DNA of 63,994 nt, counting the filler, from Folioceros fuciformis (Eukaryota): the NCBI GenBank assembly GCA_049999805.1. It is 4 parts of 3 records of this genome, joined end to end, with 100 filler letters (N's around TTAATTAATTAA, not from the genome) between each part and the next. Parts side by side here need not be neighbours in the genome. Positions count along the whole stretch, not along the records: positions 54,513 to 61,815 come from JBNGIO010006226.1; 3 more parts are not named here. One strand, written 5' to 3'. The translations under genes and the position numbers were made by a program. The notes under the pieces were generated by a model. That model worked only from the letters and a program-made list of their open reading frames with translations. It was not told the DNA's origin and made no database searches. Positions within the stretch are counted from its first letter, which is position 1; every line of letters begins with the position of its first letter. Positions 7,084-63,430 of the stretch are shown here, one piece after another.

Positions 7084-7333
7084 TCAGCGGCCCTCGGCGC
7101 TGAATTGGGGCAGTATCGTGCAGTCCGGGCCAGTCCGCACGCCGTGAAACATAGTCAGTTAAACCTGTACATACCTGGCAAAGATGTTTGTGGGGGGCCC
7201 CACTGCTTAGAGCAAGGTCGGACGTCGGTCGGCCTGGCTGTGTTAGCTGGCTCCGGAGAGTCGCGATTCTGTAGGCCTGGCCGCTTGGCGCGCGCTTCCC
7301 CGCCAGCCTGCCTCCCTCGGTCTGTGCCCTGCT

Positions 7334-8809
7334 ATGGTCTCCTCGGCCGAACTGCATTGCGCAATGCGGGTGGTACAAGATGCAGGGGACTGTCCCCTGG
7401 AGCAGGGAGCTGGGCTTGAGGTGGAGAAGGAGCAGCAGAAGCATGAGCAGCTGCAGCTGCAGCAGCAGCAGCTGAGGAGCATCACCAGCGCGGAACTCGC
7501 CGAGCATTCCACCTCGCAGGATTTGTGGGTTTCGATACAGGGTAAGGTGTACGACGTGACGGAGTGGGTGGCGAAGCACCCCGGCGGCGACTACCCTCTG
7601 CTCACGTTGGCAGGCCAGGATGTGACCGACGCATTCCTGGCTTTCCATCCCGGGACGGCTTGGAGCTACTTGCCTCAGTTTCTGGTGGGCACGCTGGTGG
7701 ATTACCGGGTGTCTCCGATCGCAGCCGAGCATCGGATGCTGGTAGGAAAGCTGAAGAGCTCCCCGCTTTTCAAAAATCCGTTACACGTCTACCGTCGGTA
7801 TGCGGCGGTCATGCTCTGCATGTTTGTGTTGGGGGTGCTGGGAGTAGTGTATTCCACCAGTGTGTGGGTGCACCTGGGCAGTGCAGTTTTGCTCGGCCTG
7901 GTGTGGCATCAGAGTGGGTTTATAGGGCATGATGCTGGGCATTGTGGAATGGTGGGGCACCCTGTGGTGGACAAGGCTGTGGGGCTTCTTGTGGGGAACA
8001 TCTTGACAGGGATCAGTATGGCATGGTGGACGCGCAACCATAATGCGCACCACTTCGCGTGCAACAGCATCGAGTATGATCCGGATTTGCAGTACATGCC
8101 CATCTTCACCCTCACTCCCAAGCTCTTCAACTCCCTCTTCTCCTACTTCTATGACAGAAGGATGATGTTTGACGGTGCCACTCGCTTGCTTGTTCGGTAC
8201 CAGCATTGGGCATTTTACCCTGTCATGGCGGTGGCACGTGTCAACCTGCACGCACAGACCTTCTTGCTCCTCCTGTCCAAGAGAAGGATCCCCAACAGGC
8301 TGCTGGAGCTTGTTTGCGTGGGGATCTTCTGGCTCTGGTTTCTCTCCCTTCTGTGCTGCCTGCCGTCCAGGGCTGAGCGCCTTGCTTTCGTTCTGGTCAG
8401 CTATGCTACCACAGGCCTTCAACACGTGCAGTTCTGTGTCAACCACTTTTCGTGCCCAATCTACCAGGCCCGTCCTGACAGCGCAACTTGGTTTGAAGCT
8501 CAGGTCAAAGGTACCCTGAACCTCATCACTCCTCCGTGGATGGACTGGTTCTATGGTGGCTTGCAGTTCCAGATAGAGCATCACCTATTCCCGAAGTTCC
8601 CTCGTCACAATCTTCGCCAGATCCACGGCATTATTAAGCCCCTTTGCGACAAGTATGGGTTGCCCTACAAGTCTGTGACATGGTGGGAGGCAAACAAGAT
8701 GATCATTAGGACTTTAAAGGCTGCAGCTATTGAGGCATCGGATCTTCAGAAGCCGTCTCCAGCTCTGTCCAAAACCCCTTTGTGGGAAGCACTCAATGCA
8801 CATGGTTAA
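7334..8809 (+). CDS. SLD: Cytochrome b5-fused front-end desaturase, delta-8 sphingolipid desaturase type, intronless
   Basis: HPGG cytb5 motif, His boxes HDAGH, HNAHH and QIEHH, and a C-terminal LWEALNAHG typical of plant SLD. Confidence 0.88.
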   Translation: MVSSAELHCAMRVVQDAGDCPLEQGAGLEVEKEQQKHEQLQLQQQQLRSITSAELAEHSTSQDLWVSIQGKVYDVTEWVAKHPGGDYPLLTLAGQDVTDAFLAFHPGTAWSYLPQFLVGTLVDYRVSPIAAEHRMLVGKLKSSPLFKNPLHVYRRYAAVMLCMFVLGVLGVVYSTSVWVHLGSAVLLGLVWHQSGFIGHDAGHCGMVGHPVVDKAVGLLVGNILTGISMAWWTRNHNAHHFACNSIEYDPDLQYMPIFTLTPKLFNSLFSYFYDRRMMFDGATRLLVRYQHWAFYPVMAVARVNLHAQTFLLLLSKRRIPNRLLELVCVGIFWLWFLSLLCCLPSRAERLAFVLVSYATTGLQHVQFCVNHFSCPIYQARPDSATWFEAQVKGTLNLITPPWMDWFYGGLQFQIEHHLFPKFPRHNLRQIHGIIKPLCDKYGLPYKSVTWWEANKMIIRTLKAAAIEASDLQKPSPALSKTPLWEALNAHG

Positions 8810-19799: not shown

Positions 19800-19965
19800 G
19801 GGCCGGGTCGGGTTGGGTTGGGTCGGGTCGGGTCNNNNNNNNNNNNNNNNNNNNNNNNNNNNNNNNNNNNNNNNNNNNNNNNNNNNNNNNNNNNNNNNNN
19901 NNNNNNNNNNNNNNNNNNNNNNNNNNNNNNNNNNTCGGGTCAGGTCAGGTCAGGTCAGGTCAGGT
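19800..19965. repeat. GGGTC/GGTCA pentamer microsatellites flanking a 100-N gap
   Basis: Visible pentamer runs on both sides of the gap. Confidence 0.85.
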
Positions 19966-22492: not shown

Positions 22493-25400
22493 TCAGTCTG
22501 CCCAAACCAACTCAAATGTTAGCCACCCACGTATCAAAGAATAACACAACACACACCCACGCAATACTCCTACTGTCATCATAGCCATACCTTCCTCACA
22601 GAAAGGGAACATGGTCCCTTCCCAAACATCATCGCCTGCCTCGCCATCGTTCTCCTCGCTTTTACTCTGTGCATCTATGCTTTCACCATCCTCTACAGTC
22701 GCACTATTTTCTGCACATCCGCTGCCTGCCAAACCTTCCCCCTCAACCCCACTCATATCGTGTCTCGAGTTGTTCGCACAAAAGCTGTTACCCACCTCCT
22801 CACCCAGATCGCCTAAGGACTGCATCCGCACTACCGGCAGAACAATCCCTTCCATATCCTTCCAACAGTCTGGCCCCTGTTCACCTGGCAACGTATCTAA
22901 TCTTTCACTTCTGCCATAAGTATCATCGAATACTTGGCTCACTATTCCTTTCGCCTCCTTACATCCTTCCTCTCCCTCTACACGACCTACACAAAGTCCA
23001 CTTTTATCATCACCTCCCTCAATCGCTTCCAACACAACATCCCTATGGACATCTCCTAACACCAGCTTCTTCGTATAATCGCCCTCCATGGACACCCTCA
23101 AACCTGACAGGTTGTAAACACCACAGCCACCAATCTCCTGTCGCCCAAACCTTGGAATATCCATGGGTGGGGAACCACTAGCTGCTGCTGTATCTCCACG
23201 GGTATGAACTGGTGGTGATGAGAAGCTCTGCTCAAAATAGTTCCCATTGCCACTTGGAATTGACCCTGGCACAAGCAATTCCATGGTGTCCAACGAAGCA
23301 GGTCGTTCATGCCGTACGTCTCCAAAGTACGGAGGAGATGAATCCCGTGATGACGGAGTCCCTACCGCTGACGTGTCGGGGGAATCTGCAACAAATTTCA
23401 CGACGGTGTTAGGCAAGCCCTGCCCTACCAGTTCCACACCCACATGTTTGGCACACACCATCCTGACAGTTCAGAGGACTCCCAACAACCCAAGCCCGCA
23501 GCGCTATAAGACCCGATGGCTGCCATAATAGCAGAATATGGTTTGCACCTCCCAAAGAGTTGTCTACAGTCAAGCACCGAGAGAAATTCACTCCCGTTCA
23601 CTTCGACGACTTGGATAAACAATCTCTAGTTCAATGATCAATACCACGAGCATGGGGAATACAGCTTGCTGGGATATGAAGCTCCCTGGGTTGACAAGTT
23701 TATCAAGCGGTCTGAAGCAGGTGTTGGTGGCTTTGAAAGTGAACCTTGATAAGCTTGATGGAATCCATTCAACCCACCGCTGCCTCCAAATGGACCTCCT
23801 TCAGAGCCAAAACTGCTCCCACTGCTCGTCCTCTGTATTTCAGGGCCACTTGAGTGAAATGCACCCCTTGCATCTTGTACCCCTCGTTCCTCAAGTAATT
23901 GCATTTGCAAAGCAGAAACTCCAGGCAAGTTGTTCAAACTCATCTCCCTAGCAGGTGCAATTCAACTGCTTAGATCTTCATCTGAACACAACTTGAGCCA
24001 GCGTTTCCAACAATCAAATCACGCACGTACCTCTGTCCCTGAATCTTTGTGAAATTCGACAGTCTTTCCATCACTGGGACCAAGTCCTTCCTTCGAACTT
24101 CAATCACCTTCGTAGGAAGGGTCTCAATCTCTAGGTCATCGTCAGCTATTTCACAAATCTCATCACCCGTCTGTTTCCCACCTGCCGACATGACATGGAA
24201 ATGCACCTGCACATGGGGAGGTCTCATGTCTGTGACACTTATCTTACTCAGATGTAGGGCAATGAGCAAGTGTAAAGGCAATAGACTTATACCTTCGAAC
24301 TTGGCCACAGACGCAGTATCCTACCATGGTGCATCTGTACTTCTGCATTGGACATGAACCGCCGTTGCATCTCTTCTGTCGTATCATCTTCCTTCCCAGA
24401 AATCTTGGACAAACCATTTTCATAATCTAGGTCAGGCCCAGCCAAACTATCAATGTTCTCCTCTCGGTCCCCCCAGTTAGGCCTTCGACAAACGTCCCAT
24501 CTTTGTAAAGTGTCTACGTTAAGCCTTAATCCCTGTTGTTGACAGGCACTATTGCTTGCACCAGTGGCACCAGCCATGCTACCATTGTTATAACCCGCAT
24601 CCAGAGCTGACACTGGATGTAACACATATCTAAGGAGGTGTCCGGAAGGTGCAAGAACCCAAAGCTGCTCCTTAAGACTGCCAGCTGATATTTCTGCCTC
24701 CTGCATCTGGCTGCCACCATCATGTAAAACAGCTGCCACAGCCCCTGAAACTACACTGCTTCTACCTGCAGCTGCAGCTGCAGCACCGGAAACAGTTCCA
24801 CGCCACCCGCTAGGTCCATTTTTTATCCTGCTAACAACCGAAAGAGTTACTGCAGGTGGCGGGGGAAGGACAGGCTGTTGCGTTGCCCTTACCGGCCCAC
24901 TGCTGGACCACCATGGCAACGGTGGTGAAGGTGCAAACGTTGATCCAGCAGGACCATCTACAGGATATGTGCCATGTGTATGTATGCCCACCATCCCGCC
25001 AAATGGGGAAATTGCAAAGACATGAGTAGTTGCTCGGGACGAGCTCACAACTACCCAGTGACCATCTCTACTGATACAGATGTCCTGAATAACCTGTAAA
25101 AGAGAGAATCAAAATAAGCCATCTCCATATTATGGCTGCCAATTGTCAATGACCAACAAACCTCCCACCACTGCCAGTAGCACTGGCCCCTCTTAGATGA
25201 TCACCCAACTCTAAAACAAAAGAAACAAGAGGCAGCCAATTACCGCAGCTGTCATCCCACGGGACAGTTTGTAGAGATGGACATGAGTTGCGCCAGCATC
25301 AAAGCTTCCTGAGTTAGATCCACTTCCCGCAGAGGAGGGAATCAAGCGGAAGACATTTAAATTGTGCCCATAGATAGAGGCCGTGACAAGAAGGGTGCCA

Positions 25401-27613
25401 CTAGGATCAAATGCAAGTGCGGACAAAGGACTCGTGTGAGCCCTGAAGTGAGTCACGAATTTCCTGCTCACAAAATCACGCACAATCACCTGCCACCAAA
25501 GATGCCAGTCTGAGAACGAGAGGAAAACATGACTGACAACATGGGAGGCACAATCAATCACATCCTCATGAACGAAACTGTACCCCATATCAAGCACCAA
25601 AAAAAAAGTGTAACCAGATCACATAACATGCCTACCATCTTCACTTCATTTTGAGATAAAGGATTAAGGGAAAACTTGACTTACAATTCCCGCATGCTCA
25701 GGCTCCGGCACTTGACCTCCAGCATGGCCATTGACACCATTCTTCCAACTTGGACTGCTAGAACCAGAATTAGTGGCTCCATCTGGAAGCAAGTCAGAGC
25801 AATACCGAGACAAGGTCTTGTATCCCCTATCACTGAGTGTCACGATCCCAGCAGCAATGTGCTTACTGGACTCTTTGGCATAATGTGCAACCAAGCTACC
25901 ACCAGCAGGTGAAGTGGATGGGCTCACACCAGGAGAGGATGTGAGATGCTGAGGTGAAACTCTTCCCGTGGTGGCCATAAGAGGTTGATTAGCCGCATAT
26001 GCCAGCCATCTCGGGCCCACAGCCATTGCACCATGAGAAGTATATGCAGACCCCCCTCCCACATGAGGTGTGGGATATGTCAACACACTGAAAATATTCT
26101 GAAGAGTCACTGCATCGAAGCAGTAAATCTGCAGTCACCGAACAAGACAAATGTAAGAGACGATTGGTGAACGAACATATCAAACAGGTTCACCAACAGC
26201 ATCAGGCTCTCACCTGGGCTTGAAGAGCAACAGCAACCACTCGTGAGCTGCAACGGACAGCACAAATACTGCTTCTGAATCGTAACACATGGACATATGC
26301 ATGTGTCCGCAGGGAATAGAAGCGAACAACAGTGGGAAACATAGGGCCATTCCCCCCTCCTGCTGGTGGACTTCCCACACCCCCTCCATACCCTCCAGGA
26401 AACCCTCCTGGAACAGCGGTGACACTGTTAGAGGTATCCCCCGTGACGACCAATAACAAGGGACGTGCGGCTTTCAGGCCCCCCTCGCCAACCTCTTGAA
26501 CATAGGGCTGTAGGCGTAGGAATGCAACCAGGCCATCTCGCCGAGACAGTAGCTCCCGAACATTGTTTGCCTCTTCCACATCCCATACTTGGAAGCCATT
26601 CACATAGGTAAGGAGCAATACCCGCCGAGACCGTGAGGGCCCCGTTTCCAGTGAATCAAAACCTGCCCAATGAACCTGCCAGCACATGGAACGAGCACGA
26701 GAAAAGAGTATCATTTTGGTGACAATTCTCGACATTGGTTTAGTGTGTAGGGTGTTGAAAAGAAGTTCACAAGTCGATGGTTCTTGACAACCACAGCCTA
26801 GTTCCCTCCAGAAAAACAAGCAAGATCATGTTCGACACTTAGGGTTTCCTCTCCCTCCCACACCCAACCCCCAGAAAAAAAACACGGTACACGACAATCC
26901 TCATGAATTGTAGGGAGCCTCAGACAGCAGTGCAGCGAAAATCAGACAGTTGCACATCCCTACATCGTCCTTCTACCATGAACAATCTCAACTGTCCTGT
27001 CCTGGAGCATTACCCTGCTTCGGCCTCTATGCACAGAGAGTTGCGAGCAGGTGGAGAGGAATGCCACCCAACATAAGGCGACAAGACACGACGACCCTGA
27101 ACCAATCTAGGGAACATTTCATTGCCATCATGAGCAGAAGCATGTGCTCAAAATCTGCAAGCGTGAGACCCAAAGTCGGAGATTTGAAACTAGGGAATTC
27201 AAGTCCAGCTGCGGCAACCTGCAGTCCAATCATGTTAAGTGCAGAGAGAAGAAGGCATGGCGGACACTAAATTNNNNNNNNNNNNNNNNNNNNNNNNNNN
27301 NNNNNNNNNNNNNNNNNNNNNNNNNNNNNNNNNNNNNNNNNNNNNNNNNNNNNNNNNNNNNNNNNNNNNNNNNTGCGCAGTACAGTACCTGCTCTCGCTG
27401 CCTCTCATCTTCCGCGGAAGACACAGTAGACGCAACAGTTGCTCCCGCGGATCGCACGGTAGAGGCGATGGTGCTGGCGTTGGCTGAGACGCTGCGCCAG
27501 TAGGTCGAAATTGTCCGGAGTGATGAAGGGAAGATGCTCCCACGGCCTGTGCCTGTGGCTGCGGCTGTGCCCCCTCTGGGACTGCCAGCATGCAAAGCAG
27601 CATCGTTCCTCAT
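22493..27613 (-). CDS. ATG18: Autophagy-related protein 18, F/G/H subgroup (WD40 + BCAS3 domain), multi-exon
   Basis: QVHWAGFD, NGFQVWDVE, GAMAVGPRWLAYA, HFRAHTSPLSALAFDPSGTLLVTAS, SSRATTHVFAISPFGG and SNAEVQMH. C-terminal MFPFCEEG. The exact last exon and stop are uncertain, and intron 1 contains an N gap. Confidence 0.9.
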
Positions 27614-31318: not shown

Positions 31319-31418
31319 NNNNNNNNNNNNNNNNNNNNNNNNNNNNNNNNNNNNNNNNNNNNTTAATTAATTAANNNNNNNNNNNNNNNNNNNNNNNNNN
31401 NNNNNNNNNNNNNNNNNN
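31319..31418. other. Artificial contig-join spacer (N-TTAATTAATTAA-N)
   Basis: Six-frame-stop 12-mer at 31363-31374 embedded in Ns. Confidence 0.9.
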
Positions 31419-36223: not shown

Positions 36224-37609
36224 TATTTGTTCACAACAAAGCCATTTCTCCCTGGCAACTTTTGATCCCTTCATCAAATACTCAAATTCAGCAAATCACT
36301 CTTAATCTTAATGTATGCTTGTCCTCCTCCATGAGTCAACTTAAAAAAGCTTTATCTACATCACAAGTTCAACTGGACACAAATTCTTATGGATTTCCTA
36401 AGTCATACACCTCACAAAGAAGTGCAAAGGATGCTTTACAATTATTATGGATGCAACTGGTGAAGGGAGAACCACTCTTTGTGAGCATGTTGTAGTGGCC
36501 ATGGGGATGCTTGTGAGGAACTTGGAGGGAAAGGAGGCTGTTGGAGTGACCCTTGCTTTGTCCTCCACACCCCATCTTGCTTTGCAACATGGTGGTAGTA
36601 GATCACTAAAAAAAAGAAGTGCCCTTTCTTCAAGAAGCAATCAAGGAAAAGGAGGCCTCCAGGATGGGCTACAGTTAAATAATGTAGCAATGATGTGCAA
36701 TGATCACAGCAAGCAAGAAGCAAAACAGCTTCATTTCCTAGAACTTAGGTAGGAAAAAGTTGTAGCATTAGATATCATTAAACTAGGACGTTCCTTGCAC
36801 CCAGTTCATTTCATTATTATTATCTTCTTCGTGATGAGAACCAAGACCCAAAACACGCTCACTTCGTGAGATTCTTCGCACACAGGTTGATTGCGGGTTG
36901 AGAAGCCGCCCCTTGATCGCGGGTTGAGAAGCCGGGGGCGGCCGTGGAGGACGGGGCGGTGGTTCTTGTACGACAGATTGTATGCATACACTCCGTACAA
37001 GTGCGTGTATGGATATGATGGAACGCTCAAAACCGTAAATGCGTATGTATATGTAATCCAGACTTTCTGTATGGCTACGAGGCAGGTGCGGGAATGGGGT
37101 ATGGAAATGCAAGTCGCGGCGACAGGGAAATCGGAGAGATGGTACCTCTTTTCTGGTTATGGCACATGGAGGCGACATAGAGAGAGACTGCCGCACGGCC
37201 GTGGCCCAGACATCGAGGCCGTCCTCTTCATTACTCGTTTGTGAAGAACACGGGACGGCCACTACTCCATCTCCGACACTGAGAATTATCATTGGGTATC
37301 TATTATTATAGAGTAGAGTGACGTGGTAGATAGTTGTGTGCCTGGCACGCGCAGGCGTGTGGCAGCACACTCGAGGAATTAAAAAAAACTAATGGATGCC
37401 AGCAAAGCAAGTTGTGTTTCAGTGAAGAGCTCCGCTGTCGTGCGATTGAGTTGGGAATCGGGGAAGTTGGGCTTCGCCATCAAGTCTTCCCATAAAGTTT
37501 GTGTATCCAGCCTCAATTGCCTTGCCTCGCCTTGCCCTGCCCTGCCGTTGCATTTCCTGGCTGGGCCGGCTCATGCCATCTCACCGTGTCTGTCAAGTGC
37601 AGTAGCAGG

Positions 37610-38287
37610 ATGTTGGCCCGGACCGCTGCCCACTTGGGTACTGCTTTTGGCCGTCAGGGTCAGCAGCTGCTGCCCTTGGTGCAACGCGGCTACCATGAGA
37701 AGGTGGTGGACCACTACAATAACCCGCGCAACGTGGGCTCCTTCGACAAAAACGATCCCTCCGTGGGAACGGGTCTGGTTGGTGCTCCGGCCTGTGGGGA
37801 TGTCATGAAGCTGCAGATCAAAGTGGACGAGGAAACCGGCCAGATCGTCGACTCATGCTTCAAGACCTTTGGCTGCGGTTCGGCCATCGCGTCTTCCTCC
37901 GTTGGTACTCTTTCCTTGCCTTCCCTACTCGGAAATTTCTTTGCGTGTCTCTGTACCCTTGGCTTCATTACTCTCCTCTGTGTCGCAGCGACGGAGTGGG
38001 TCAAGGGGCGAGGCACAGACGATGTGATTGATATCAAAAATAGGTTGGTGCCACTCCACGCACTCGATATGACAAGGCTCCATGTGACGAACGGGCCACA
38101 CCTCACAGGGTTTTCTCGTTGTTGGACTTGCAGTGACATAGCCAAGCACCTGTCCCTCCCGCCAGTGAAGTTGCATTGCAGCATGCTGGCTGAGGACGCG
38201 ATCAAAGCTGCAGTGCAGGATTATCAAAGCAAGAGAGCCAAGCGTGAAGATGAAGTCAGTGAGGCTGCAGCAGCCCAGCGGCCCTAA
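37610..38287 (+). CDS. ISU1: Mitochondrial Fe-S cluster scaffold IscU/ISU1, three exons
   Basis: YHEKVVDHYNNPRNVGS, GAPACGDVMKLQI, FKTFGCGSAIASSS and LPPVKLHCSMLAEDAI. Introns at 37905-37988 and 38044-38133. Confidence 0.96.
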   Translation: MLARTAAHLGTAFGRQGQQLLPLVQRGYHEKVVDHYNNPRNVGSFDKNDPSVGTGLVGAPACGDVMKLQIKVDEETGQIVDSCFKTFGCGSAIASSSVGTLSLPSLLGNFFACLCTLGFITLLCVAATEWVKGRGTDDVIDIKNRLVPLHALDMTRLHVTNGPHLTGFSRCWTCSDIAKHLSLPPVKLHCSMLAEDAIKAAVQDYQSKRAKREDEVSEAAAAQRP

Positions 38288-38864: not shown

Positions 38865-40889
38865 TTAGTCGCAGGCAGACAGTGGGTTAGTTGCTTGGAT
38901 TAGCCAAGCCAAATCGTCGCCTGAGAGGTGGGGAGACAGGGCCTTGCGACAGTCGAAGTGATACTTGTCAATCCAGCCGATCTCTTCTGGAGTGAGCAGG
39001 GAAACATCCATCAACTTCTGTTGGTAGGGTACCCATGTAATATGCTCAAATTCCAGGTAGCCTTTCTCCCCGAAGTTGTGTTTCACCTCTGCTTCTTTTA
39101 TGATCAAAACATTCTCTATCCTTATCCCGAAGTTGCCATCCTCGTAATAGCCAGGCTCGTCGGTGACTGTCATGTTGGCTTGCAACGAAACGTTCCGGGC
39201 CTGCGGCCTGAAGCTGATCAGGTGGGGTCCCTCGTGCACATTGAGGTAAGAACCCACACCATGCCCTGTGCCATGGCGGTAGTCGAGCCCATCCTTCCAG
39301 AGAGGGAGTCTTGCGAGGATATCTAAGGCATGACCAGTGGTGCCATTGGGGAAGACAGCCGTGTCCAAGCCTATGTGTGCCTTGAGGACCCGTGTGTAGC
39401 AAGCCTTCTCATGGGCCGACGGCTTCCCGAAATGCATGGTGCGCGTGATGTCGGTGGTGCCATCCAGGTACTGCCCACCCGAGTCGCACAGATACATAGA
39501 GTCAGGCTGCATCTCCGCGCAAGAGTCCGGCACAGCAGAATAGTGGATTACAGCCGCATTGGCCCCCACGGCGGAAATGGTGTCGAAGCTGAGGCCCTTG
39601 AAAAGCTCCCGCTTGGAGCGAAATTCCTCCAACTTGTCGCTCACACTAATCTCGGTCATCTTCTCCTTATCCGAGCGCTTGCGCTTCAGAGAGCCCTTGC
39701 CATCGTTGCCCTCGGAGAAGTAGCCCGCTGCCCCATACACCTCCTGCATCTGCCGGTCCAGCCACGCGGTGTGACACACGACGGCTGCCCCGTCCCGGAT
39801 GTGTGAATTACGCATGCCCTGCAGCTCCACGGGATGCTTTAGCGCCTTGGCCAGGGCCAAAGGGGACTGCTGCAGCAGCACCCTGTCCTGCGGCAACCTG
39901 GTGTAGAGCGCGTAGCTGCAAGAGGCAGGGTCAAGCCACACCAACTTGGGAGCATCGCTTGAGCCGTGGTCGTCCTCCTCCTCCACCTCTTCCTCCGATC
40001 CTTCCGCGGAGGGCTCGGGCTCAGGATCGGCAGCTGCAGCGCAGACCCTGCCCAGCTCCTCCACATCCGGCAGCATCCGGTCGTAGTCCCGGATCTCCAC
40101 TCCGTTCTCCCGCAAGTAATGCTCCACCACCTCGTCGATCTTGCGCCGGTCCACGTAGTAAAAGGCAGAATGCGCGGTGACGATAGCGAAGGCGTGCACC
40201 ACGGGGTTGTAGAGCACGTCAGAGCCCCGCAGATTATAGAGCCAGGCCACCTCGTCCAGTGTGGTGACGAGGATGGCGTACGCCCTCTCCTTGGCCAGAG
40301 CCTGGCGCAGGTCGTGCAGCTTGTCCCTGGCGAGCCTGCCGGCGAAAGCCACGGCGTGTGTATGGACGGGAGCCAGCGCGGGCCTCGGCCGCGTCTTCCA
40401 CACCTGATCCACAAGATTATGCTGCAGAGGCACCAGCTTTAGGCCGCTCCGCGCGAAGGCGTGCTCCCAGCGCTTGGCGGAATCCACCGAAACGCACCAG
40501 GGGTCCACCCCGACGGCGGCCCCGCGCGACAGGTGATCCGCCAGCCAAGTCTCCAGCGGTGGCTCCTCCCCGCCTCGCATCAACTGCCATGCGCTGCTCA
40601 GCTGCTGCTGTGCTTGCAGGAAGTAGCGGCCATCGGTCCACAGCAGCGCCTTGCTACCCGTGATCACGGCCACACCAGCGCTGCCGCTGAAGCCGCTCAC
40701 GTACTCCCGCCGCTTGTCTGAGTCCGCCACGTACTCGCTTTGGTGCGCGTCCTCCGACGGCACCACCAGCGCCTCCAGCGCCGGTGTGTGGGCCTGCATC
40801 AGCGGCCGCAGCAGCCCCACTGCCTCTACCTCTACCTCTCCGTTTCCCTCTGCCTCGTCCCGCTCTTCCTTCCCCTCCGACTCCTCCAT
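38865..40889 (-). CDS. APP1: Aminopeptidase P1 (Xaa-Pro aminopeptidase, M24B), intronless
   Basis: VPSEDAHQSEY, LWTDGRYFLQA, DSGGQYLDGTTDITRT, HGTGHGVGSYLNVHEGP and EPGYYEDGNFGIRIEN. First ATG is at 40889; the ORF track uses an upstream GTG. Confidence 0.94.
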   Translation of the reverse strand: MEESEGKEERDEAEGNGEVEVEAVGLLRPLMQAHTPALEALVVPSEDAHQSEYVADSDKRREYVSGFSGSAGVAVITGSKALLWTDGRYFLQAQQQLSSAWQLMRGGEEPPLETWLADHLSRGAAVGVDPWCVSVDSAKRWEHAFARSGLKLVPLQHNLVDQVWKTRPRPALAPVHTHAVAFAGRLARDKLHDLRQALAKERAYAILVTTLDEVAWLYNLRGSDVLYNPVVHAFAIVTAHSAFYYVDRRKIDEVVEHYLRENGVEIRDYDRMLPDVEELGRVCAAAADPEPEPSAEGSEEEVEEEDDHGSSDAPKLVWLDPASCSYALYTRLPQDRVLLQQSPLALAKALKHPVELQGMRNSHIRDGAAVVCHTAWLDRQMQEVYGAAGYFSEGNDGKGSLKRKRSDKEKMTEISVSDKLEEFRSKRELFKGLSFDTISAVGANAAVIHYSAVPDSCAEMQPDSMYLCDSGGQYLDGTTDITRTMHFGKPSAHEKACYTRVLKAHIGLDTAVFPNGTTGHALDILARLPLWKDGLDYRHGTGHGVGSYLNVHEGPHLISFRPQARNVSLQANMTVTDEPGYYEDGNFGIRIENVLIIKEAEVKHNFGEKGYLEFEHITWVPYQQKLMDVSLLTPEEIGWIDKYHFDCRKALSPHLSGDDLAWLIQATNPLSACD

Positions 40890-41266
40890 GATGCGCAGCC
40901 GCTGCGCCAACTCTGCTTCCACCTCCTCCGCCACTTTGCCAGGCCTCGCACTTCAAACGAAAAAGGCAATTCTTGCCACAACCTCCTAGCACCCGAGCGA
41001 TAGACGAGGCCGAGGGCTCGCAGCGCCGCAACTCTCCACAAGAGGGCCCATCCAAGGCTAGACTACGTCTACAGACAGGAATATACGTCTAGGAAAAAGA
41101 GGGTAGATAGGTCCTCAAATTTTTAGTAAAAAGTTCCGTGGAGATAAACAGGTACGTTTTCCACAGCCAGTGAACGAATCCGCGTCATGAGCAAGCATTC
41201 AAGGACACTACTACCCATGAACCCATACCGATGACCTGAATACATAGACTATACGTTCCGTGAAAA

Positions 41267-54412: not shown

Positions 54413-54512
54413 NNNNNNNNNNNNNNNNNNNNNNNNNNNNNNNNNNNNNNNNNNNNTTAATTAATTAANNNNNNNNNNNNNNNNNNNNNNNNNNNNNNNN
54501 NNNNNNNNNNNN
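54413..54512. other. Artificial contig-join spacer
   Basis: TTAATTAATTAA at 54457-54468 within Ns. Confidence 0.9.
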
Positions 54513-57265
54513 GTGATTCGTGCGAGCTCAGCAGCCAACGAAACGCCTTCACCGTTGCCTCTGCCTGCTGTCGAAAATGTCTTGCATTCCCATCCCGCGA
54601 TCAGCATATCCACTGGGCTTGACAAGGCTTGTAGCTGCCGCTTCCCAACCAGGTTCACGTCTGTGGGCAGCCTGCTCTGACAGCCTCGAACTGCTTCCTC
54701 GCTCAGTAGTGTTGGATACTGTTTGCAGAACCTGAGGATTCGACCCCTAGCAACAACTCGAATCTTCTCATCCTTCTCCACGCAGGTATATTGCCGTATC
54801 TTGACGCCACACTGCAACACCGCTTCCAGGCCACTGTTGATTCCCGAGCAGAGCTCCAACAAATGGATGCCTTGAGCGCCCACCTTCCATCGTACTAGAG
54901 CATCGTCGATGCGTCGATCTCCCGACTTGGCAGGCCCCATACCTGGGATCGACCTCTCAGGACATGTGTCTGTGAGATTCCACGGTCGATCCTCCTTCCT
55001 TCGCTGGTTCTCTCGAACCCTCGCTTGATCCAAATATTCTGAGCGCACCACCTTAAGCACACCCTTCTGCTCTCTTGGCTTTGGCATCTCCAGAGAGGAT
55101 AACTCCTGCGTTTCCTCCCACATCTCATGTCGATGTTCACTCTGAGCACTGTGGGCAATCATGGTGCTGCCTGTCATCCTCGTCCTGCTCTTGCCACCAC
55201 TCCTATTCATCCTTAGAGGAATTCGTGCAACATGCGTGAAATCTCCTCTCCACCAGAATGGTCTGTAGAAAGCTTCAGCGTGCAAGGGATCAACCCCCAT
55301 GGCAGGACGGTGAGTTCCGTCCGACCCCAGCAAGACATCATATGTCTTCGCACTGGTGACCAAACATCTCACTTCAACGATGCTGGCATCCTTCGTGCCA
55401 GGCTTCAATTCAATCTTCACGGGCCTCCTCGTCATTCCCAGTACCTGTTCCTTGGTACCTGCAGAGGTGGTGATGTTCACGTCGCTCGGAACGAGCTTGT
55501 GTCCGTACAGGTTTAGTGCCTCCTGCACCCGTGCTCCCAGCAGTACCGGATCCGCTCCTGTGTCTACAAGTACGTTTACTGGAGCATAGCCATCAAAGGT
55601 CACGTGCCGTCCCGTGTTATCAATCATGGCAACACCTCCTCCACCTCGCGCCTCTGGCATCAGATGCTCGCCACACAAACTGGCCATACTAGGGAGAGAT
55701 CCTGCGGATTCAAGCTCCTTTCTCAGCCATTCTCGCATGATGTTTTTGAAGTTGTTGCCTTTCACTCCCAGATCCACAAGACTTACTGCAGGCACCTCCA
55801 TGGCCTTGTCCAGCAACGCCTCAACGTCTCTACCTGATCTTGACACCTTCTGTGTCGTGGAGTTTCCCTCGACCTGCCGGAAACTCTCCGGCATCTTGGT
55901 CGATTCCCGTTCCGGCACTCCCTTCGCAGTGACGCCTTCACCAAAGTTAGCAACAGCCTTTTTCTTTTTCTTGCGCACCGCCATCATGCCAAATGCCTCA
56001 TCATCATCAGAGTCAGAGAACAAAATCCTCTGCTCTATTCTGCTGGCCATGTTGGCCATCTCCTTCTTGAGCTCCTCCACTTGCCCAAGGAGAGCCTTAC
56101 GACTCGGGCCCTTGCCCTTCTCGTTCTCAGCTGATGCAAGCTTGGGCTTCAGCTCTGGATAAGCTTCCCAACACGCTGCCTCCATGTGACCCCATCTGCC
56201 ACAAGACTTACAGGCTTCCTTGCCCTTCGGACCACCTGGCTTGTAGTCGCATTCGAACGCCTTGTGCGCTCCACAGCATCTGCCACACTTCACAGCTGCT
56301 TGACCTGCATTGTTAGCTGGCCTCTCCTTCGGCGCATGTGGCTGCTTGCCATGTCCTGAGGATTGTGCTTGCTCCCGGTACTGGTACCTTGGAACAAACC
56401 TGGAATTCCCGTGTCCTCCAGACCCGTGCTGCGAGGAGCCCTTCACGACTCCGTGATTTTCCAAGTAAGCCTGGCTTACTGCATCTCCTTTGAGCACCTT
56501 CTCAGCAATTTGGTAGGCGTCTATCAACTGATACCTTTCTCCCATCGCTCCATGCAGCGAGTCCATTACCTTCCTTCTTTGTCTGGCAGGCAATGCTGCC
56601 ATGAAGATCTCGGCAGCCTCCCTCATCGTCTTCACTCCCGTGTCTTCCACCAGAACCTTCAGTCTGAGGTAAGATGCACGCAATGTCTCGTTAGGCCTGA
56701 AAGAAAACCTCGACAGTTCCTGGATCTTTTCCAGCGAAGCTGTAGGAAACATGGTGGTTAACTTGGCGAACATCAAGTCCACCAGATGCTCGAGCTTGTC
56801 CTCGTCAGTAGGGGGTGCAGTCGAACCAGCCCTCTTGGCCGCCTCGTGCACTGCTTCTCTTCTCTCGGCCACCTTCAGGATCCCAGCCTTCTCATCTCTG
56901 TAATACATTAGAGCCTCACCCGCAAGGTAGGATGACATCTTCATGAACGCCATCCTCTGAGTGAACTCGTCCTTGTATTTCATCTTGTTTTCCGCCATTG
57001 CCCAACGAAACTTCTCCTCGAAATCTGCAAGAGACATGCTTCCATGTTTTCCTGTGAAGACATCGTTCTTACTTGGTGTGAACTCAAGCTCCATTCTTGC
57101 AGACTCTCTGCTCCAATCGCCAAACTGTCTCCTTGTGACTGGCGCGTTGTCTCTGTATTGTTCCGGTGTCCTCTTGAATGGCGAGTAGTAGCCGTCGTGC
57201 ACTTCTCCGACTGAAGACGGCGCAGGTGTCCTTTCGTCAGTCCACCCTGATCTCAAGAACACCAT
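54513..57265 (-). CDS. Retroelement polyprotein, N-terminal part: gag, two CCHC knuckles, aspartic protease, start of the DNMT domain (truncated by gap)
   Basis: YLAGEALMYY gag-like segment, CGRCCGAHKAFEC and CKSCGRWGHMEAAC, VLVDTGA...DVLLG, and LLELCSG...AGWEC. Confidence 0.88.
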
Positions 57266-57489
57266 CAATGGTTACTTCTCCTATGCCTGACCACTGCACG
57301 GATGTTGTCAAAGGGCAAATTGTTTCCACCGTTAGCCCAATCAGCTAGCCAGAAAAGTACATCCACTGCCTCTATCCACAAACGACTCCAGACGTATGCA
57401 GGCTCTTCTCCCGACAGCTCTGCTAACTCAGCAATCGTGAGACTACCACACCTAAGCCGTGTATAATCAATGGCAGAATTCTTGTCCAT
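57265..57489 (-). CDS. 74-aa upstream ORF whose stop overlaps the polyprotein start (TGATG)
   Basis: ATG at 57489 and TGA at 57267-57265 sharing its A with the ATG at 57265-57263. Confidence 0.5.
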   Translation of the reverse strand: MDKNSAIDYTRLRCGSLTIAELAELSGEEPAYVWSRLWIEAVDVLFWLADWANGGNNLPFDNIRAVVRHRRSNH

Positions 57490-57654
57490 CAGAAAAACAT
57501 CAGCCTATCTCTTAGTGCTGCCTCTGCAACACCCAACCTTCTTGGATCGCAGCTGTCTCTTGGGTTGGATGGTGGACGATTTCCGCCTCTTCATCCAATC
57601 TCCAGCGCGCCACATTCTCCTCCAGTACCGTATCTTAGTCCCCAACAAGCGGAT

Positions 57655-58496
57655 TGTTGATGTGGTGAAATCAAGCTGGAAAATTCTCCCAACCTGGCAA
57701 TGCAACGAACCACAAGAACCTCTAGGAGACAAAGACACAGCAGGGACGAAGTATGGCTGTCTATTGGAACAAGACAAACATCAACAATCCGAGAATCCAT
57801 GGCTGGGTGCCTACATATATAGGCAAAAACCCCCAGGAGTTCTCGATGAAGTGTCCACCCGTATCGATGGTGGGCACTTTATAATCCTACTTTCCTTGAT
57901 TTATGATTTTTATGTATTTTCTAATATCTTCTAATATAAATCTGCTATCTATATATGTGGCATAGCACCGCGCCTTTCATGCACAACCATGCATATAGGT
58001 TGCATGCGCCATGACACATCACCTGCCACATGTCCACATACATCACATGTCATCCTTCATCTCCATATGCATGCATACATGGCACACATGCATATATGGC
58101 ATACATGTCATGTGCAGGCCATCCATGGGCCATGTACATGACATCATCAAGCACTTCAGCATCAGGGCTTATGCCCGAGATGCTCCAGTCAGTATCTAGT
58201 CATTTCAGCATTCAGGGCTTATGCCCAGGATGCTCTAGTCAGTATCCAGTCATAGAGTCTTAGGTGCTCTGTTTCCCATACAGCAACAGCTGTCGCGCAG
58301 CAGCCGCATAGCTGCATGCCTACCTAGCCTGTCTACCAAGCTAGGTCACTAAGCTTCCGCCTGCCTACGATCTCCTTGGCCTTCGGCCTAGGAGCAACAA
58401 TCCTAGCCTTAATTTGTCCTTGGCCTATGGCCAAGAGCAAGGCTACAAAAAGAGACTAGGTTTGCCTAAGAGAGGCAGACCCGGGACCCGTCAACA
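57655..58496 (-). repeat. Long terminal repeat (about 840 bp) of the DNMT-carrying element
   Basis: Starts TGTTGA immediately after the purine-rich AGGGGGGC (PPT, 58504-58497). TATATAT at 57821. Ends at ...CCACA (57661) or ...TCAACA (57655). Confidence 0.75.
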
Positions 58497-58582
58497 GCCC
58501 CCCTGGGAAACTTGGAGGCCTAGCCACCTGGTTTCCCACAAAATTGTTTAGACCAACTTGGCCTAGGAAAACAAACAACTAC

Positions 58583-61500
58583 TTACCAACGTCCCCACCA
58601 GCGAGAACGTAGCTTGTCCAACACTGACGGTGGTTCTGACCGAGGAGGAGGAATGGCGTCATCTTCTAGATCCTCATCATCTGATGGGTCTTCTTGTGCC
58701 TCCTGTGTAATCGTAATCTCACTGGGCAGCTTGAATCCAGAGAGACTGTCAACTGCTGTTTCAGCTTCCAACGTGTGTGAATTTAAGACAACCTCAGTAT
58801 CACCTTCTGTAAGAGCCACGTTCACACTTAGCACATTACAGTGCTCACATAGCCATTCTTCTTCTGGAACACTGTCCAGTGCCGGTTTGAGGCAAAACAG
58901 ATGGTAACCACGGTTACACCTGTCACATAGCAACATGAATTCGTCGTCAGTTGTGTGTCCACACTCCTCACAGGGCAAATCTGCTGGTGGCGTCCAGGTC
59001 TGAGGCACAGTTCGTGTATCCAGATCAGGCAAATGGCATGGAGCCAAGTGCTTCATGTGTTCCTTGCACCTTCTGCCATCTCTTCCTTCAAGTTCAACCA
59101 CACCTTGCTCACCAACCTGGACAACTCGCAGGATAAGCCTTCCTGTGCTGACATCTAACGTGCTTGCAGGCCTGCGCTGCAAGTACACGTAATCTCCAGA
59201 TGCAAACTTGCGGCCTTTGGGCTTCCACGAGCCCTCCCGCGTATAAGCATACCTCAGCTGGTCCCGATGCTGGGCCACAGCCAAATTATCCATAGCCATG
59301 GGAAGAATTCTTTGAAATACTTCTGCTCTGGCTTGAACCTGTGCCAAGCACACATTTGCATCTTTGCTCCAGTCAACAGGGATGGAGTAGGTGTCCTTCA
59401 CCACATTCGGCAACACTGCGTTGCGTCCGAATAACAAAAAGTATGGACTGAAACTTCCAAGAGCTGCCATGCTGAATCTCTCCCGCAGCAGCTCGTCTTC
59501 CTCTGCCTTAGGAACCTCTTTATCCTGCAGTAGTTGGAGGAAAGGCCTTCGCTTCCCTTCGGCTTCTGCAAGTTGGAACGCCAAGCCTGTGCTTACCAGC
59601 CACCTTAGACTGTACAAGTCAAATGCCTGTCCGAGCATCCTGCACCTTGCAGATTCTGTGATGCCCATGGTCTGAGTGTCCTTCTTGGCAAAGCCCATCG
59701 CTTGCTCGCGTTCCTCAACATTGAGCTCTCCAAGCTCATTCCCTTTCAAATCCAGAATCACACCATCTCCTCCTGGTCTGAAGGCATAAGATTGCGGTGT
59801 GCTCACCAGAGTTGGCCATGCCCTTCTGGATTCCCCTACTCGATTCACAGGGTAAAATGGCAACTTGTCCATCCTCTTCACCTGTTGTGAGCACCTTCCC
59901 AACTCTAGGATATCATCCACAACCTTCCGCTTCGGAGTTGTCAAATTCCTGTGATGTCTGAGCACCTCCAGTCCAGCCACATTTGTCCAGTAACTGCGAA
60001 GCCTGTGTGCATATGAGCCACACTGCACCGCGTCCATGATCAGCTCATTGCCGAACCACGCCCGAATCTCTTCATACAGGGCCCTAACAGCTGGACGTTT
60101 GTCCATGGCTGCACACACATTCTCCAGAATGTACCAACATCGTGGATTCGCAATCTGGACTTCTCGCGTGATTCGTGCGAGCTCAGCAGCCAACGAAACG
60201 CCTTCACCGTTGCCTCTGCCTGCTGTCGAAAATGTCTTGCATTCCCATCCCGCGATCAGCATATCCACTGGGCTTGACAAGGCTTGTAGCTGCCGCTTCC
60301 CAACCAGGTTCACGTCTGTGGGCAGCCTGCTCTGACAGCCTCGAACTGCTTCCTCGCTCAGTAGTGTTGGATACTGTTTGCAGAACCTGAGGATTCGACC
60401 CCTAGCAACAACTCGAATCTTCTCATCCTTCTCCACGCAGGTATATTGCCGTATCTTGACGCCACACTGCAACACCGCTTCCAGGCCACTGTTGATTCCC
60501 GAGCAGAGCTCCAACAAATGGATGCCTTGAGCGCCCACCTTCCATCGTACTAGAGCATCGTCGATGCGTCGATCTCCCGACTTGGCAGGCCCCATACCTG
60601 GGATCGACCTCTCAGGACATGTGTCTGTGAGATTCCACGGTCGATCCTCCTTCCTTCGCTGGTTCTCTCGAACCCTCGCTTGATCCAAATATTCTGAGCG
60701 CACCACCTTAAGCACACCCTTCTGCTCTCTTGGCTTTGGCATCTCCAGAGAGGATAACTCCTGCGTTTCCTCCCACATCTCATGTCGATGTTCACTCTGA
60801 GCACTGTGGGCAATCATGGTGCTGCCTGTCATCCTCGTCCTGCTCTTGCCACCACTCCTATTCATCCTTAGAGGAATTCGTGCAACATGCGTGAAATCTC
60901 CTCTCCACCAGAATGGTCTGTAGAAAGCTTCAGCGTGCAAGGGATCAACCCCCATGGCAGGACGGTGAGTTCCGTCCGACCCCAGCAAGACATCATATGT
61001 CTTCGCACTGGTGACCAAACATCTCACTTCAACGATGCTGGCATCCTTCGTGCCAGGCTTCAATTCAATCTTCACGGGCCTCCTCGTCATTCCCAGTACC
61101 TGTTCCTTGGTACCTGCAGAGGTGGTGATGTTCACGTCGCTCGGAACGAGCTTGTGTCCGTACAGGTTTAGTGCCTCCTGCACCCGTGCTCCCAGCAGTA
61201 CCGGATCCGCTCCTGTGTCTACAAGTACGTTTACTGGAGCATAGCCATCAAAGGTCACGTGCCGTCCCGTGTTATCAATCATGGCAACACCTCCTCCACC
61301 TCGCGCCTCTGGCATCAGATGCTCGCCACACAAACTGGCCATACTAGGGAGAGATCCTGCGGATTCAAGCTCCTTTCTCAGCCATTCTCGCATGATGTTT
61401 TTGAAGTTGTTGCCTTTCACTCCCAGATCCACAAGACTTACTGCAGGCACCTCCATGGCCTTGTCCAGCAACGCCTCAACGTCTCTACCTGATCTTGACA

Positions 61501-61815
61501 CCTTCTGTGTCGTGGAGTTTCCCTCGACCTGCCGGAAACTCTCCGGCATCTTGGTCGATTCCCGTTCCGGCACTCCCTTCGCAGTGACGCCTTCACCAAA
61601 GTTAGCAACAGCCTTTTTCTTTTTCTTGCGCACCGCCATCATGCCAAATGCCTCATCATCATCAGAGTCAGAGAACAAAATCCTCTGCTCTATTCTGCTG
61701 GCCATGTTGGCCATCTCCTTCTTGAGCTCCTCCACTTGCCCAAGGAGAGCCTTACGACTCGGGCCCTTGCCCTTCTCGTTCTCAGCTGATGCAAGCTTGG
61801 GCTTCAGCTCTGGAT
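58583..61815 (-). CDS. Retroelement polyprotein, C-terminal part: protease, DNMT3-like C5 methyltransferase, integrase C-terminal remnant, PHD finger
   Basis: DTGA (61219), LELCSG, AGWECK, ILENV, AHRLRSYWTN, EREQAMGF and MLGQAFD. FSPYFLLFGR...AQHRDQ...FASGDYVYL. CEECG...LLCDRCNRGYHLFCL...WLCEHC. Confidence 0.92.
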
Positions 61816-61915
61816 NNNNNNNNNNNNNNNNNNNNNNNNNNNNNNNNNNNNNNNNNNNNTTAATTAATTAANNNNNNNNNNNNNNNNNNNNNNNNNNNNN
61901 NNNNNNNNNNNNNNN
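61816..61915. other. Artificial contig-join spacer
   Basis: TTAATTAATTAA at 61860-61871 within Ns. Confidence 0.9.
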
Positions 61916-63430
61916 AAGGTGGTTCCGCTCCTCCCTGGATCCGAGAAGGAAAGGGGAGAGCTCATGGAAGACCTCACTTCCATGGGCTGCGCGGATTTTC
62001 TCCTTAAACCCTGGGGGTTTAAGGAAGAATTAGTCGTTAGGGAGTTGGTCGGAGGCCGCTCCAACATATTCAACGGCTCAATCCGTGCCGACCCAGCGAG
62101 GTGGACGGATAAGCTCTGGAGGGAAGTCTATGGCTTCCGCTCCGGAGGGCTGGGAATGGCCAGCCGCAAGGATGACTGGATCCGCGGAAAGTTCCGCGGA
62201 CCAGTCAATCCGAAAGATGGTTACGCAATTGAGGATTGCGTGACCAACCGGAACCGTAGGTTGCTGGAGTTTTTACTCCCGATCCTACATCCGGAAAAGC
62301 CCACGAGGGTTACCATAACCCTCGCGAATACGATTTTCGGTGCCCAGAAAGGGGACCGGAAGGTAGACTGGGGCCGGATCATGCATGATCTGGTCTCCCA
62401 GTTAGTGGGCAGGGTCGGAAAGAGCAGGGCAACTCCTTTGAGCCCCTACCTCTTCCACCTCTACAAGCACGCAGAACTCCTGACCGGACCAGAGGAAAAG
62501 GTCTGGAAGCATCAGGAGATGCTGCTCAAGTACGGGGAGTCTACGTCTGATGACGAGACTCAACCCGAGTCCGGATCGGAACCGGACTCGGATGAGGATG
62601 ACTGTGCAGTCACCTCCCCGCCACCAAAGAAGCAAAAAGCGAAGTCTCCTCCACAGGACAAGGGCAAAGCAAAAGCCCAGGATCCGGAGACTTCGTCCCG
62701 GCCTATTCCCAAACCCGGAGCTCAGCCAAAGAGTTTCGTCGGTTTCGGGGATCCGATCACGCCATTGCTGGATGCAGTGACAAACCTCCGATTAGACTTG
62801 GAAAGTAAGAACCTAGTCTTAATCGAGGTAGCCAATGTGATCGGAGTGAGGCCGGACCGGAACTTAGCTGCCAAAGTAGCGGAGTGCATCGCGGATCCGA
62901 GTGAAGCTGAACGGCATCAGGCGGAACTCCACGCGCTACGAGGGGAGCTGGAGAAGACCAAGGCCGATCTTCTCCGAGCAAGGGAGGACACTGTCGCGAT
63001 CCGGATGATCGCCCGGGACGTTTCCATGGTAGCCACCCAGGTTAAGGAAACTCTCGGTGCACCGGGAGCGGCAGTGGCCAAGGCCGAATTGTACAATACG
63101 AAGGCCCTGGAGGATCGGAAACTTTCCGGCTCCAGGATGCTGGCGATCCTCTCCGACTACTCGGAGCGAATAGAGGGCGCCATGCAAAAAGGGCGGGAGG
63201 CTGCGGACCGGATCGTCAACAGCATGGAGCGCATAGTGCGGGCAAGGGAGTCCCAAGAGCCTCATCTGTCGGATGTCTCCCTTCCTACCCTTTTCCTGGA
63301 CGAAACCGGAACCGGAGGATTTATGTTCTCCACTCCGGAGTCCAAGAAGGCGGCCGAAGTCCCCGCATCCGGAAGCAGGAGTCCAAAGAAGAAGACTCCA
63401 CCCAGCCGGACAGCGAGGCGGTTAGATTAA
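61916..63430 (+). CDS. 5'-truncated protein of at least 503 aa, probably a retrotransposon accessory ORF (globular domain + acidic/basic linker + coiled coil)
   Basis: Intronless open frame. NPKDGYAIEDC...LHPEKPTRVT...VDWG domain, PPPKKQK NLS-like motif and a coiled-coil C-terminal half. TCCGG/CCGGA-rich flanks. Confidence 0.55.
   Translation, partial: KVVPLLPGSEKERGELMEDLTSMGCADFLLKPWGFKEELVVRELVGGRSNIFNGSIRADPARWTDKLWREVYGFRSGGLGMASRKDDWIRGKFRGPVNPKDGYAIEDCVTNRNRRLLEFLLPILHPEKPTRVTITLANTIFGAQKGDRKVDWGRIMHDLVSQLVGRVGKSRATPLSPYLFHLYKHAELLTGPEEKVWKHQEMLLKYGESTSDDETQPESGSEPDSDEDDCAVTSPPPKKQKAKSPPQDKGKAKAQDPETSSRPIPKPGAQPKSFVGFGDPITPLLDAVTNLRLDLESKNLVLIEVANVIGVRPDRNLAAKVAECIADPSEAERHQAELHALRGELEKTKADLLRAREDTVAIRMIARDVSMVATQVKETLGAPGAAVAKAELYNTKALEDRKLSGSRMLAILSDYSERIEGAMQKGREAADRIVNSMERIVRARESQEPHLSDVSLPTLFLDETGTGGFMFSTPESKKAAEVPASGSRSPKKKTPPSRTARRLD

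Follow-up and report, generated by a model that had tools for sequence, protein, structure and literature searches.

A probable internally deleted copy of a Gypsy-DNMT3-type retrotransposon in Folioceros fuciformis, with a DNMT3-like methyltransferase followed by an integrase tail and a PHD finger

The window analyzed here is a stretch of 63,994 nucleotides joined from parts of the genome assembly of Folioceros fuciformis (GCA_049999805.1), and one of its contigs, at 54513–61815 (minus strand; 7303 bp), is a loop that holds 1.29 copies of a 5655-bp unit. This unit is likely a non-autonomous copy, shortened by an internal deletion, of a Ty3/gypsy-type long terminal repeat (LTR) retrotransposon that belongs to the Gypsy-DNMT3 kind. 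At full length, such an element would encode gag, an aspartyl protease (PR), a DNMT3-like cytosine methyltransferase (MTase, or DNMT), reverse transcriptase (RT), RNase H (RH), integrase (IN), and a PHD finger in a single frame. One deletion at a 7-nt microhomology, produced either by template switching of reverse transcriptase or by microhomology-mediated end joining, would then have brought the MTase next to the IN tail, with the reading frame preserved by a one-in-three chance. Because the copy keeps gag, PR, and its ends but lacks RT and IN, it would be able to move only in trans, with RT and IN borrowed from full-length copies. The resulting fusion of DNMT, IN tail, and PHD finger is a by-product of the deletion, not a new invention, and nothing shows that it is selected or functional; the copy is an ordinary decay product, uncorroborated outside the contig of the window itself.

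Methyltransferase, integrase tail, and PHD finger in one frame

All features of the unit described below are on the minus strand. An open reading frame (ORF) of 1050 amino acids that runs from 61735 to 58583, referred to as ORF2, extends the frame of a second ORF (57268 to 54513) through the terminal repeat of the contig, which gives the unit a single ORF of 1446 amino acids in the order gag, aspartyl protease, methyltransferase, integrase tail, C4HC3 PHD finger, and acidic tail. The MTase occupies residues 402–725 of ORF2 (59561–60532) and was delimited by comparison of fold, sequence, and motifs. Read by eye, its motifs stand in canonical order: I-like (60476–60514), IV (AGWECKTFS, 60227–60253), VI (ILENV, 60116–60130), VIII (59987–60013), IX-like (59777–59815), and X-like (59618–59635), with both the catalytic Cys of motif IV and the ENV of motif VI present. 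The Pfam family PF00145 (DNA_methylase) scores the domain at 19.5 bits, under its cut-off of 22, and scores relatives at 46.1, 32.5, and 33.0 bits. The best match among solved sequences is DNMT3A (PDB phmmer, E 2.9e-4). An AlphaFold2 model built with 28 sequences has a mean pLDDT of 80.6, mostly above 90 over the MTase domain, and a Foldseek search with it places the catalytic domains of DNMT3A, DNMT3B, and DNMT3C at the top (E 4.5e-17, TM 0.80–0.83 normalized to the target). Sequence and model together therefore make the predicted domain, METHYLTRANSFERASE, clearly one of the DNMT3 kind despite the Pfam score below the cut-off. The usual Pro-Cys of motif IV is replaced by Glu-Cys in the window and in the relatives P0001, P0004, P0005, and P0167, and is kept in P0002, P0003, and P0006; as judged from these sequences, Glu before the catalytic Cys is a family trait. 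The residue after the Cys is K in the window and Q in relatives.

Downstream of this domain, the frame reads ...EEDELLRERFSMAA/LGSFSPYFLLFGR...AQHRDQ...GDYVYL at 59503–59180, where the slash marks the deletion junction, an ambiguity of 7 nt (GGCAGCT, 59462–59468) that fits the sequence on either side, DNMT as well as integrase tail. The initial annotation had taken this text as an MTase frame that continues into the post-catalytic tail of a gypsy integrase and then into a complete C4HC3 PHD finger, and both points are borne out. The stretch at 58973–59461 (LGSFSPYFLLFGR...AQHRDQLRY...GDYVYL...APCHLP) corresponds to an integrase C-terminal region past the catalytic core and, over window residues 757–966, which include the PHD finger, has 50% identity to residues 2136–2344 of the relative P0167 (BLASTP, E 2e-58). 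In the AlphaFold2 model the tail forms helices followed by five short strands, and the junction region (model residues 331–374) is modelled as disordered. The PHD finger, at residues 922–966 of ORF2 (58838–58972), matches PF00628 with 41.6 bits against a cut-off of 24 (E 1.3e-10), and a pattern scan finds the C4HC3 zinc-ligand spacing at the same residues. The nearest solved PHD fingers are those of ATXR5, MLL3, WSTF, CHD4, BAZ2A, KDM5, UHRF1, BHC80, and AIRE, most of which bind unmodified H3K4 or H3R2. The Pfam scan of the ORF gave no match to the Chromo family, and a PHD finger stands at the position concerned.

The remaining parts of the frame connect the unit with Ty3/gypsy elements. A gag zinc knuckle of the form CX2CX4HX4C (CKSCGRWGHMEAAC) was found by pattern scan at residues 353–366 of the unit ORF (56171–56212), and a retropepsin-type aspartyl protease at residues 160–254 of ORF2 (60974–61258; PF13650, 28.4 bits against a cut-off of 24.3), whose region is duplicated at 55319–55603 by the loop of the contig. 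A knuckle-bearing gag and a retropepsin, as expected of Ty3/gypsy, are thus present, and a non-rearranged DNMT3-type C5-MTase lies within a Gypsy polyprotein ORF, as in the Gypsy-DNMT3 kind. Neither RT with RNase H nor an integrase with HHCC and DDE motifs is found in the copy; relatives carry both, with H2C2 and rve following RT-RH. In agreement with the earlier statement that no YxDD, RNase H, or HHCC/DDE motif is visible in the unit, the ORF has no Pfam match to RVT, RNase H, rve, or Integrase_H2C2 at E ≤ 0.1, and Y/FxDD is absent from all six frames of the contig. The sole match to a loose H..H..C..C pattern falls in the PHD region (residue 893 onward), so an integrase zinc finger is not present.

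Relatives and the shape of the deletion

An HMMER scan with the window protein returned 5985 cluster representatives at E ≤ 1e-3 and 366 at E ≤ 1e-30, mostly on two stretches of the query, the DNMT (402–725) and the tail with the PHD finger (755–975). The named relatives come from green-lineage algae, namely Cymbomonas, Tetraselmis, Closterium, and Tetrabaena; no protein named for Klebsormidium nitens was among those found. A near-identical protein from the same organism was not found in the three length ranges searched, the best being P0160 with 66% identity. Pfam annotation of individual relatives distinguishes two domain orders, RT-RH-DNMT-IN-PHD (P0011, P0063, and P0168) and gag-PR-DNMT-RT-RH-IN(-PHD) (P0071, P0054, P0167, and P0169). 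When all 206 fetched relatives (P0001–P0206) were scored with five probes, 131 had both DNMT and the tail with PHD; between these two lay IN without RT in 120, RT-RH-IN in 10, and neither in one (P0162). The RT-RH-DNMT-IN-PHD order thus accounts for 120 of the 131, versus 10 for the DNMT-RT-RH-IN-PHD order, which suggests two captures or a domain shuffle. PR stands directly ahead of DNMT in 16 of the 21 relatives having both. The gap from the end of DNMT to the start of the tail is 32 amino acids in the window, 117 in P0162, and at least 272 in the other 130.

These comparisons decide which claims about the unit can be kept. The initial annotation had described a non-autonomous derivative whose frame survived a multi-kb deletion; relatives that still carry RT, RH, and IN exist (P0167, P0169, P0071, and P0054), and P0167 supports the deletion. 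Residues 150–719 of the window protein align with residues 652–1275 of P0167 over PR and DNMT (BLASTP, E 8e-85), the tail and PHD align as given above, and the window has no equivalent of the approximately 860 residues (roughly 2.3–2.6 kb) between them. Because the window matches P0167 on both sides of this gap, a single deletion suffices to explain the architecture, and by sequence comparison the window is a member of the DNMT-before-RT order. The further proposal that the element had convergently rebuilt a histone-guided methyltransferase does not hold, given that DNMT and tail-PHD occur together in the 131 relatives counted above, with IN or RT-RH-IN between them in 130. Since DNMT and IN-PHD both belong ancestrally to the full-length polyprotein of this clade, the deletion rebuilt nothing and merely shortened the distance between them.

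The deletion would span from the pre-RT leader to the last strand of the integrase core. What probably remains of the leader, by by-eye alignment, is the stretch EEDELLRERFSM... at 59469–59503, whose counterpart in relatives (...LAAHADCFAYSMHDLG..., ...LLEKQRGNFAFSSKELG...; leaders of P0167, P0169, and P0071 were compared) leads into RT. In an alignment with MAFFT, "RFSMAALGSF" looked like the strand with which the integrase core begins, a reading that was ruled out: the first part belongs to the pre-RT leader and "AALGSF" to the end of the core. A derivation from RT-RH-DNMT-IN relatives by two or more separate deletions, one removing RT-RH between PR and DNMT and another removing the IN core after DNMT, was likewise considered and is ruled out by the relatives of the PR-DNMT-RT-RH-IN-PHD order. 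The one other protein without RT and IN between the two parts is P0162, a gene model of 581 amino acids from Closterium sp., in which DNMT and the pre-RT leader go straight into the integrase tail and a PHD finger is lacking; either a deletion of its own or a wrongly predicted intron may account for this shape.

The junction in public sequencing runs and competing explanations

Logan contigs from four public runs of three studies were aligned to one unit, and the statements below refer to the 31 contig pieces listed out of 218. Organism A is the source of the DNA runs X1 and X5 and of X3, which is guessed to be RNA, and X4 is a DNA run of organism B. In X1, X3, and X5, contigs continue on both sides past the junction into the same unlike sequence. 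Upstream of the tail, this sequence reads in frame as IVLGYRVSVQ, the end of an integrase core as in P0160 (...IALGYRESCQAALGSYSPYYLLFGR); on the DNMT side the frame stays open, with record 12 of X3 running on for 777 letters. These continuations indicate that the full-length form predominates in the same organism. The link between PR and DNMT is bridged by record 13 of X3 (60346–61039), and the absence of RT between PR and DNMT is therefore native to the element. A comparison with X1 reveals 17 sites over 5.6 kb where the run has only the letter that the window lacks, and at several of these all four runs agree against the window. Two are at conserved positions: N415, beside motif I, is S in all four runs and in relatives, and E834 is G in three runs and in relatives. 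Of 11 coding differences, taken from X1 and mostly shared by the other runs, six are non-synonymous and five synonymous. Such private differences suggest, without proving it, a distinct and slightly older or more decayed copy over a mosaic or a chimera. A signature of methyl-cytosine decay was also sought in the copy, and no conclusion was drawn, as only 4 of the 13 transitions checked were at CpG. A metagenome scan with an exact 48-mer beside the junction gave 0 matches, and one with a single protein found no relative.

The same runs hold most of what weighs against a deleted genomic copy. In each of the four, a listed contig stops at 59462 or 59468, that is, at the borders of the 7-nt overlap, and none of the listed pieces bridges the junction, which is known solely from the contig of the window, itself a contig with identical ends and no flanks. 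The two flanking contigs together account for the full depth of the junction bin both in X1 (405.0 versus 404.9) and in X3 (9.99 versus 9.96), which leaves no room for a bridging contig in these two runs. Even the RT expected after DNMT in the X3 continuation is inferred from relatives only. The initial annotation had itself named a misassembly or a single-copy accident as the danger to its reading, and the runs do not dispel it. As contigs drop rare variants, the lack of a bridge fits both rarity and true absence of the deleted form in these runs.

The junction might accordingly be an artefact of assembly or library preparation, a chimeric join within a collapsed, looped repeat contig, in which case only the full-length element would exist in the organism. 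We regard this as unlikely. In its favour, the join sits in a short repeat contig whose ends are identical over 1648 bp and which has no flanks, all four runs break at the junction and three of them continue into other sequence on both sides, and the depth arithmetic of X1 and X3 leaves no bridging contig. On the other hand, assemblers based on overlaps or k-mers need far more than 7 shared nt to make a join, so reads bearing the junction probably existed; the join is in frame and at plausible domain borders, and private differences from the majority sequence along the entire contig fit a separate, real copy. A related possibility is that the contig stems from a defective element present as extrachromosomal circular cDNA or in a head-to-tail tandem array, and not from a dispersed chromosomal insertion. 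The perfect 1648-bp terminal redundancy, the 5655-bp period, and the lack of flanks would suit it, and reverse transcription is known to yield defective circles with microhomology deletions as a by-product; such a loop would, however, be the expected assembly of any high-copy element that has terminal repeats, and one round of reverse transcription would hardly produce as many as the approximately 17 private differences, which makes this explanation quite improbable. The deleted form could also have arisen as an intron-loss copy, by reverse transcription and insertion of a spliced subgenomic RNA of the full-length element. Within the 7-nt ambiguity, a GC...AG reading is available, exon...CATG/GCAGCTGTGG......TGTGCAG/GCAGCT, which corresponds to the rare GC-AG intron type. 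Its ends are nevertheless non-canonical, no clear pyrimidine tract is seen in the 30 letters shown, and X3, the run guessed to be RNA, follows the unspliced path on both sides with no bridging contig by depth, so that we give this origin hardly any weight.

Another alternative is that selection has kept the in-frame fusion as a working de novo methyltransferase, made by a retrotransposon and guided by histones, within a non-autonomous lineage that propagates. The unit does have an open frame of 1446 codons, a complete and canonically ordered set of MTase motifs that includes the catalytic Cys and ENV, a confidently modelled DNMT domain, and a PHD finger above the Pfam cut-off, and P0162 likewise has DNMT, pre-RT leader, and IN tail without RT or IN between. 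An open frame is expected, however, of any young copy, its survival across the junction is a one-in-three chance, and the full-length polyprotein already has both DNMT and PHD. The junction is not in the listed contigs of the four runs; the copy has derived changes at conserved positions (S to N at residue 415, G to E at residue 834, and K for Q after the catalytic Cys), and its six non-synonymous against five synonymous differences do not speak for selection. P0162 has no PHD, and its shape may stem from the predicted intron. As far as the available text shows, the only published activity test of a Gypsy-DNMT3 protein, made in yeast with the domain of KnitGypsy-Dnmt3 from K. nitens, detected no methylation and was called inconclusive (PMC5890265). 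Taken together, these points render selection of the fusion very unlikely. It would similarly be a long shot that the in-frame form is a propagating non-autonomous lineage or a spliced product whose protein has a DNMT3-type writer tethered, with the integrase C-terminal domain as the link, to a PHD finger that reads unmodified H3, and thereby acts as a transposon-made analogue of DNMT3-ADD that methylates histone-chosen chromatin. An internally deleted copy of the Gypsy-DNMT3 kind remains the explanation that we favour.

Surroundings, known elements, and meaning

The 5655-bp unit is the period of a looped repeat contig without genomic flanks: the first and last 1648 bp are 100% identical with 0 mismatches, and the contig is parted from its neighbours by linkers of the form N44-TTAATTAATTAA-N44, which have stops in all six frames. 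Such linkers lie at 31319–31418, 54413–54512, and 61816–61915, and plain 100-N gaps at 19835–19934 and 27274–27373; as the window consists of separate contigs chained by linkers, the genes beside the element are not its true neighbours. The 5′ part of the unit ORF, with gag, PR, and the start of DNMT, lies at 54513–57268, where the contig end cuts it, and by the 5655-bp period the frame resumes at 60167. At the other end, the acidic C-terminal tail and the stop codon (58583–58837) are not conserved and are modelled with low confidence. A variant in X3 skips 182 nt of this tail (58586–58767) with a 7-nt overlap and without GT-AG ends, and an 8-nt insertion after 58285 is present in X3 and X4; the element thus differs at its 3′ end from one culture or strain to another.

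Between the stop and the start of gag lies a non-coding stretch of 1.3 kb (57269–58582), probably the terminal-repeat and promoter region, of which the contig holds a single copy. It contains a 50-nt tandem duplication (58155–58253) and short CATG-rich repeats. The depth of X1 in the non-coding bins at 57673–58428 is 2–5 times that of the coding part, which hints at terminal repeats; X3 has no cover over 57673–58239, and this was not used as evidence. Immediately below 58291, where the sequence read in the sense of the element ends in ...GACA, three contigs part from the window; this point may be the end of a terminal repeat. An ORF of 74 amino acids (57265–57489) that belongs to no known family stands directly upstream of the gag frame and ends at its start.

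The rest of the window contains no related DNA or protein and no further copies of the unit. On the plus strand of the next contig, an ORF of 503 amino acids (61919–63430) has no Pfam family above cut-off and gives weak protein-atlas leads (0.83–0.87) to streptophyte hypothetical proteins and to "plant transposon protein" clusters. Long single ORFs of ordinary host genes encode a sodium:sulfate symporter (86–1855), a cytochrome b5-fused fatty-acid desaturase (7247–8809), a BCAS3-like protein (24287–25108), NifU/IscU (37496–38287), and aminopeptidase P (38865–40952).

Internally deleted LTR elements that depend on a full-length partner are well known from the LARD-type, BARE2-like, and Dasheng-like elements. 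The window copy resembles them in keeping its ends and part of its coding region, in the loss of RT and IN, and in the presence of a close full-length form in the same organism, and differs from them in that its frame stays open past the junction, with gag, PR, an enzyme, and a reader all still encoded. No sign that the deleted form has been amplified was found in the window or among the listed contigs of the four runs. Chromoviruses carry a chromodomain at the integrase C terminus, and, as the initial annotation had remarked, the PHD finger takes the same position, following the integrase C-terminal domain both in the window and in relatives. By analogy, the PHD finger of the full-length element would most likely tether integration to a state of the histone H3 tail, such as the unmodified H3K4 or H3R2 that most of its nearest solved relatives bind, just as the chromodomain as a histone-tail reader is presumed to steer integration by chromatin state, although the reader is a PHD finger instead of a chromodomain and the mark read is probably different. 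The ADD domain of DNMT3A, DNMT3B, and DNMT3L is a PHD-like reader of unmodified H3K4. These proteins share with the window a DNMT3-type catalytic fold (4u7t is among the fold matches) and a zinc-finger histone reader in the same polypeptide; in the window, unlike in them, the reader is C-terminal, is a plain PHD finger rather than a GATA-PHD ADD, and is parted from DNMT by the integrase C-terminal domain.

The kind of element is itself known, if under-described. DNMT3-carrying Gypsy LTR retrotransposons, KnitGypsy-Dnmt3, were reported from the charophyte K. nitens (de Mendoza et al. 2018, PMC5890265), and the label "streptophytes (Gypsy-DNMT3)" appears in the text of a 2026 preprint (10.64898/2026.05.21.726589). 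According to the main text of PMC5890265, KnitGypsy-Dnmt3 has in common with the window a non-rearranged DNMT3-type MTase in a Gypsy polyprotein ORF of the green lineage, an intron-free ORF, and the key catalytic motifs; the family is also described there as having an unusual, DIRS-like repeat layout, which the looped repeat layout of the window would fit. RT, RNase H, and the IN core, by contrast, are missing from the window copy. The term PHD has 0 occurrences in the main text of that article, and the comparison is drawn from this text. The same article proposes that retrotransposon DNMTs methylate new cDNA (de Mendoza et al. 2018, PMC5890265), and the DNMT3-like domain studied here may likewise methylate new cDNA or the insertion site.

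Combinations with chromatin readers have been described for other elements. Chromoviruses are defined as Ty3/gypsy elements with an integrase C-terminal chromodomain (Gao et al. 2008, as cited in the text of 10.1101/2021.11.30.470311), and the same text reports that PHD and Chromo domains co-occur with RT and integrase domains across eukaryotes. PHD fingers are described in the text of PMC8557442 as a common accessory domain of Chlamydomonas transposons. The EpiLTRs of Cymbomonas and Euglena, as presented in the preprint text (10.64898/2026.05.21.726589), are chromovirus-like elements with adenine and cytosine methyltransferases and a chromodomain. They agree with the window in that an LTR retrotransposon joins a DNA-methylation writer to a chromatin reader, and differ in that their DNMT4-related MTase, DAM, and chromodomain contrast with a DNMT3-like MTase, no DAM, and a PHD reader in the window. 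In the literature text searched, nothing was found on a Gypsy clade with DNMT3 and integrase-PHD or on its two domain orders; supplements may differ.

The deleted copy as such matters little, as internally deleted LTR copies are common and Gypsy elements that carry DNMT3 were described in 2018. The clade behind it is, however, large and regularly pairs a DNMT3-like writer with an integrase C-terminal PHD finger, in two domain orders. Whether or not nature uses it, the deleted copy provides a ready-made minimal construct (DNMT-IN tail-PHD) for tests, and the pairing of writer and PHD finger would make these elements a natural system for the study of how transposons choose and mark chromatin.

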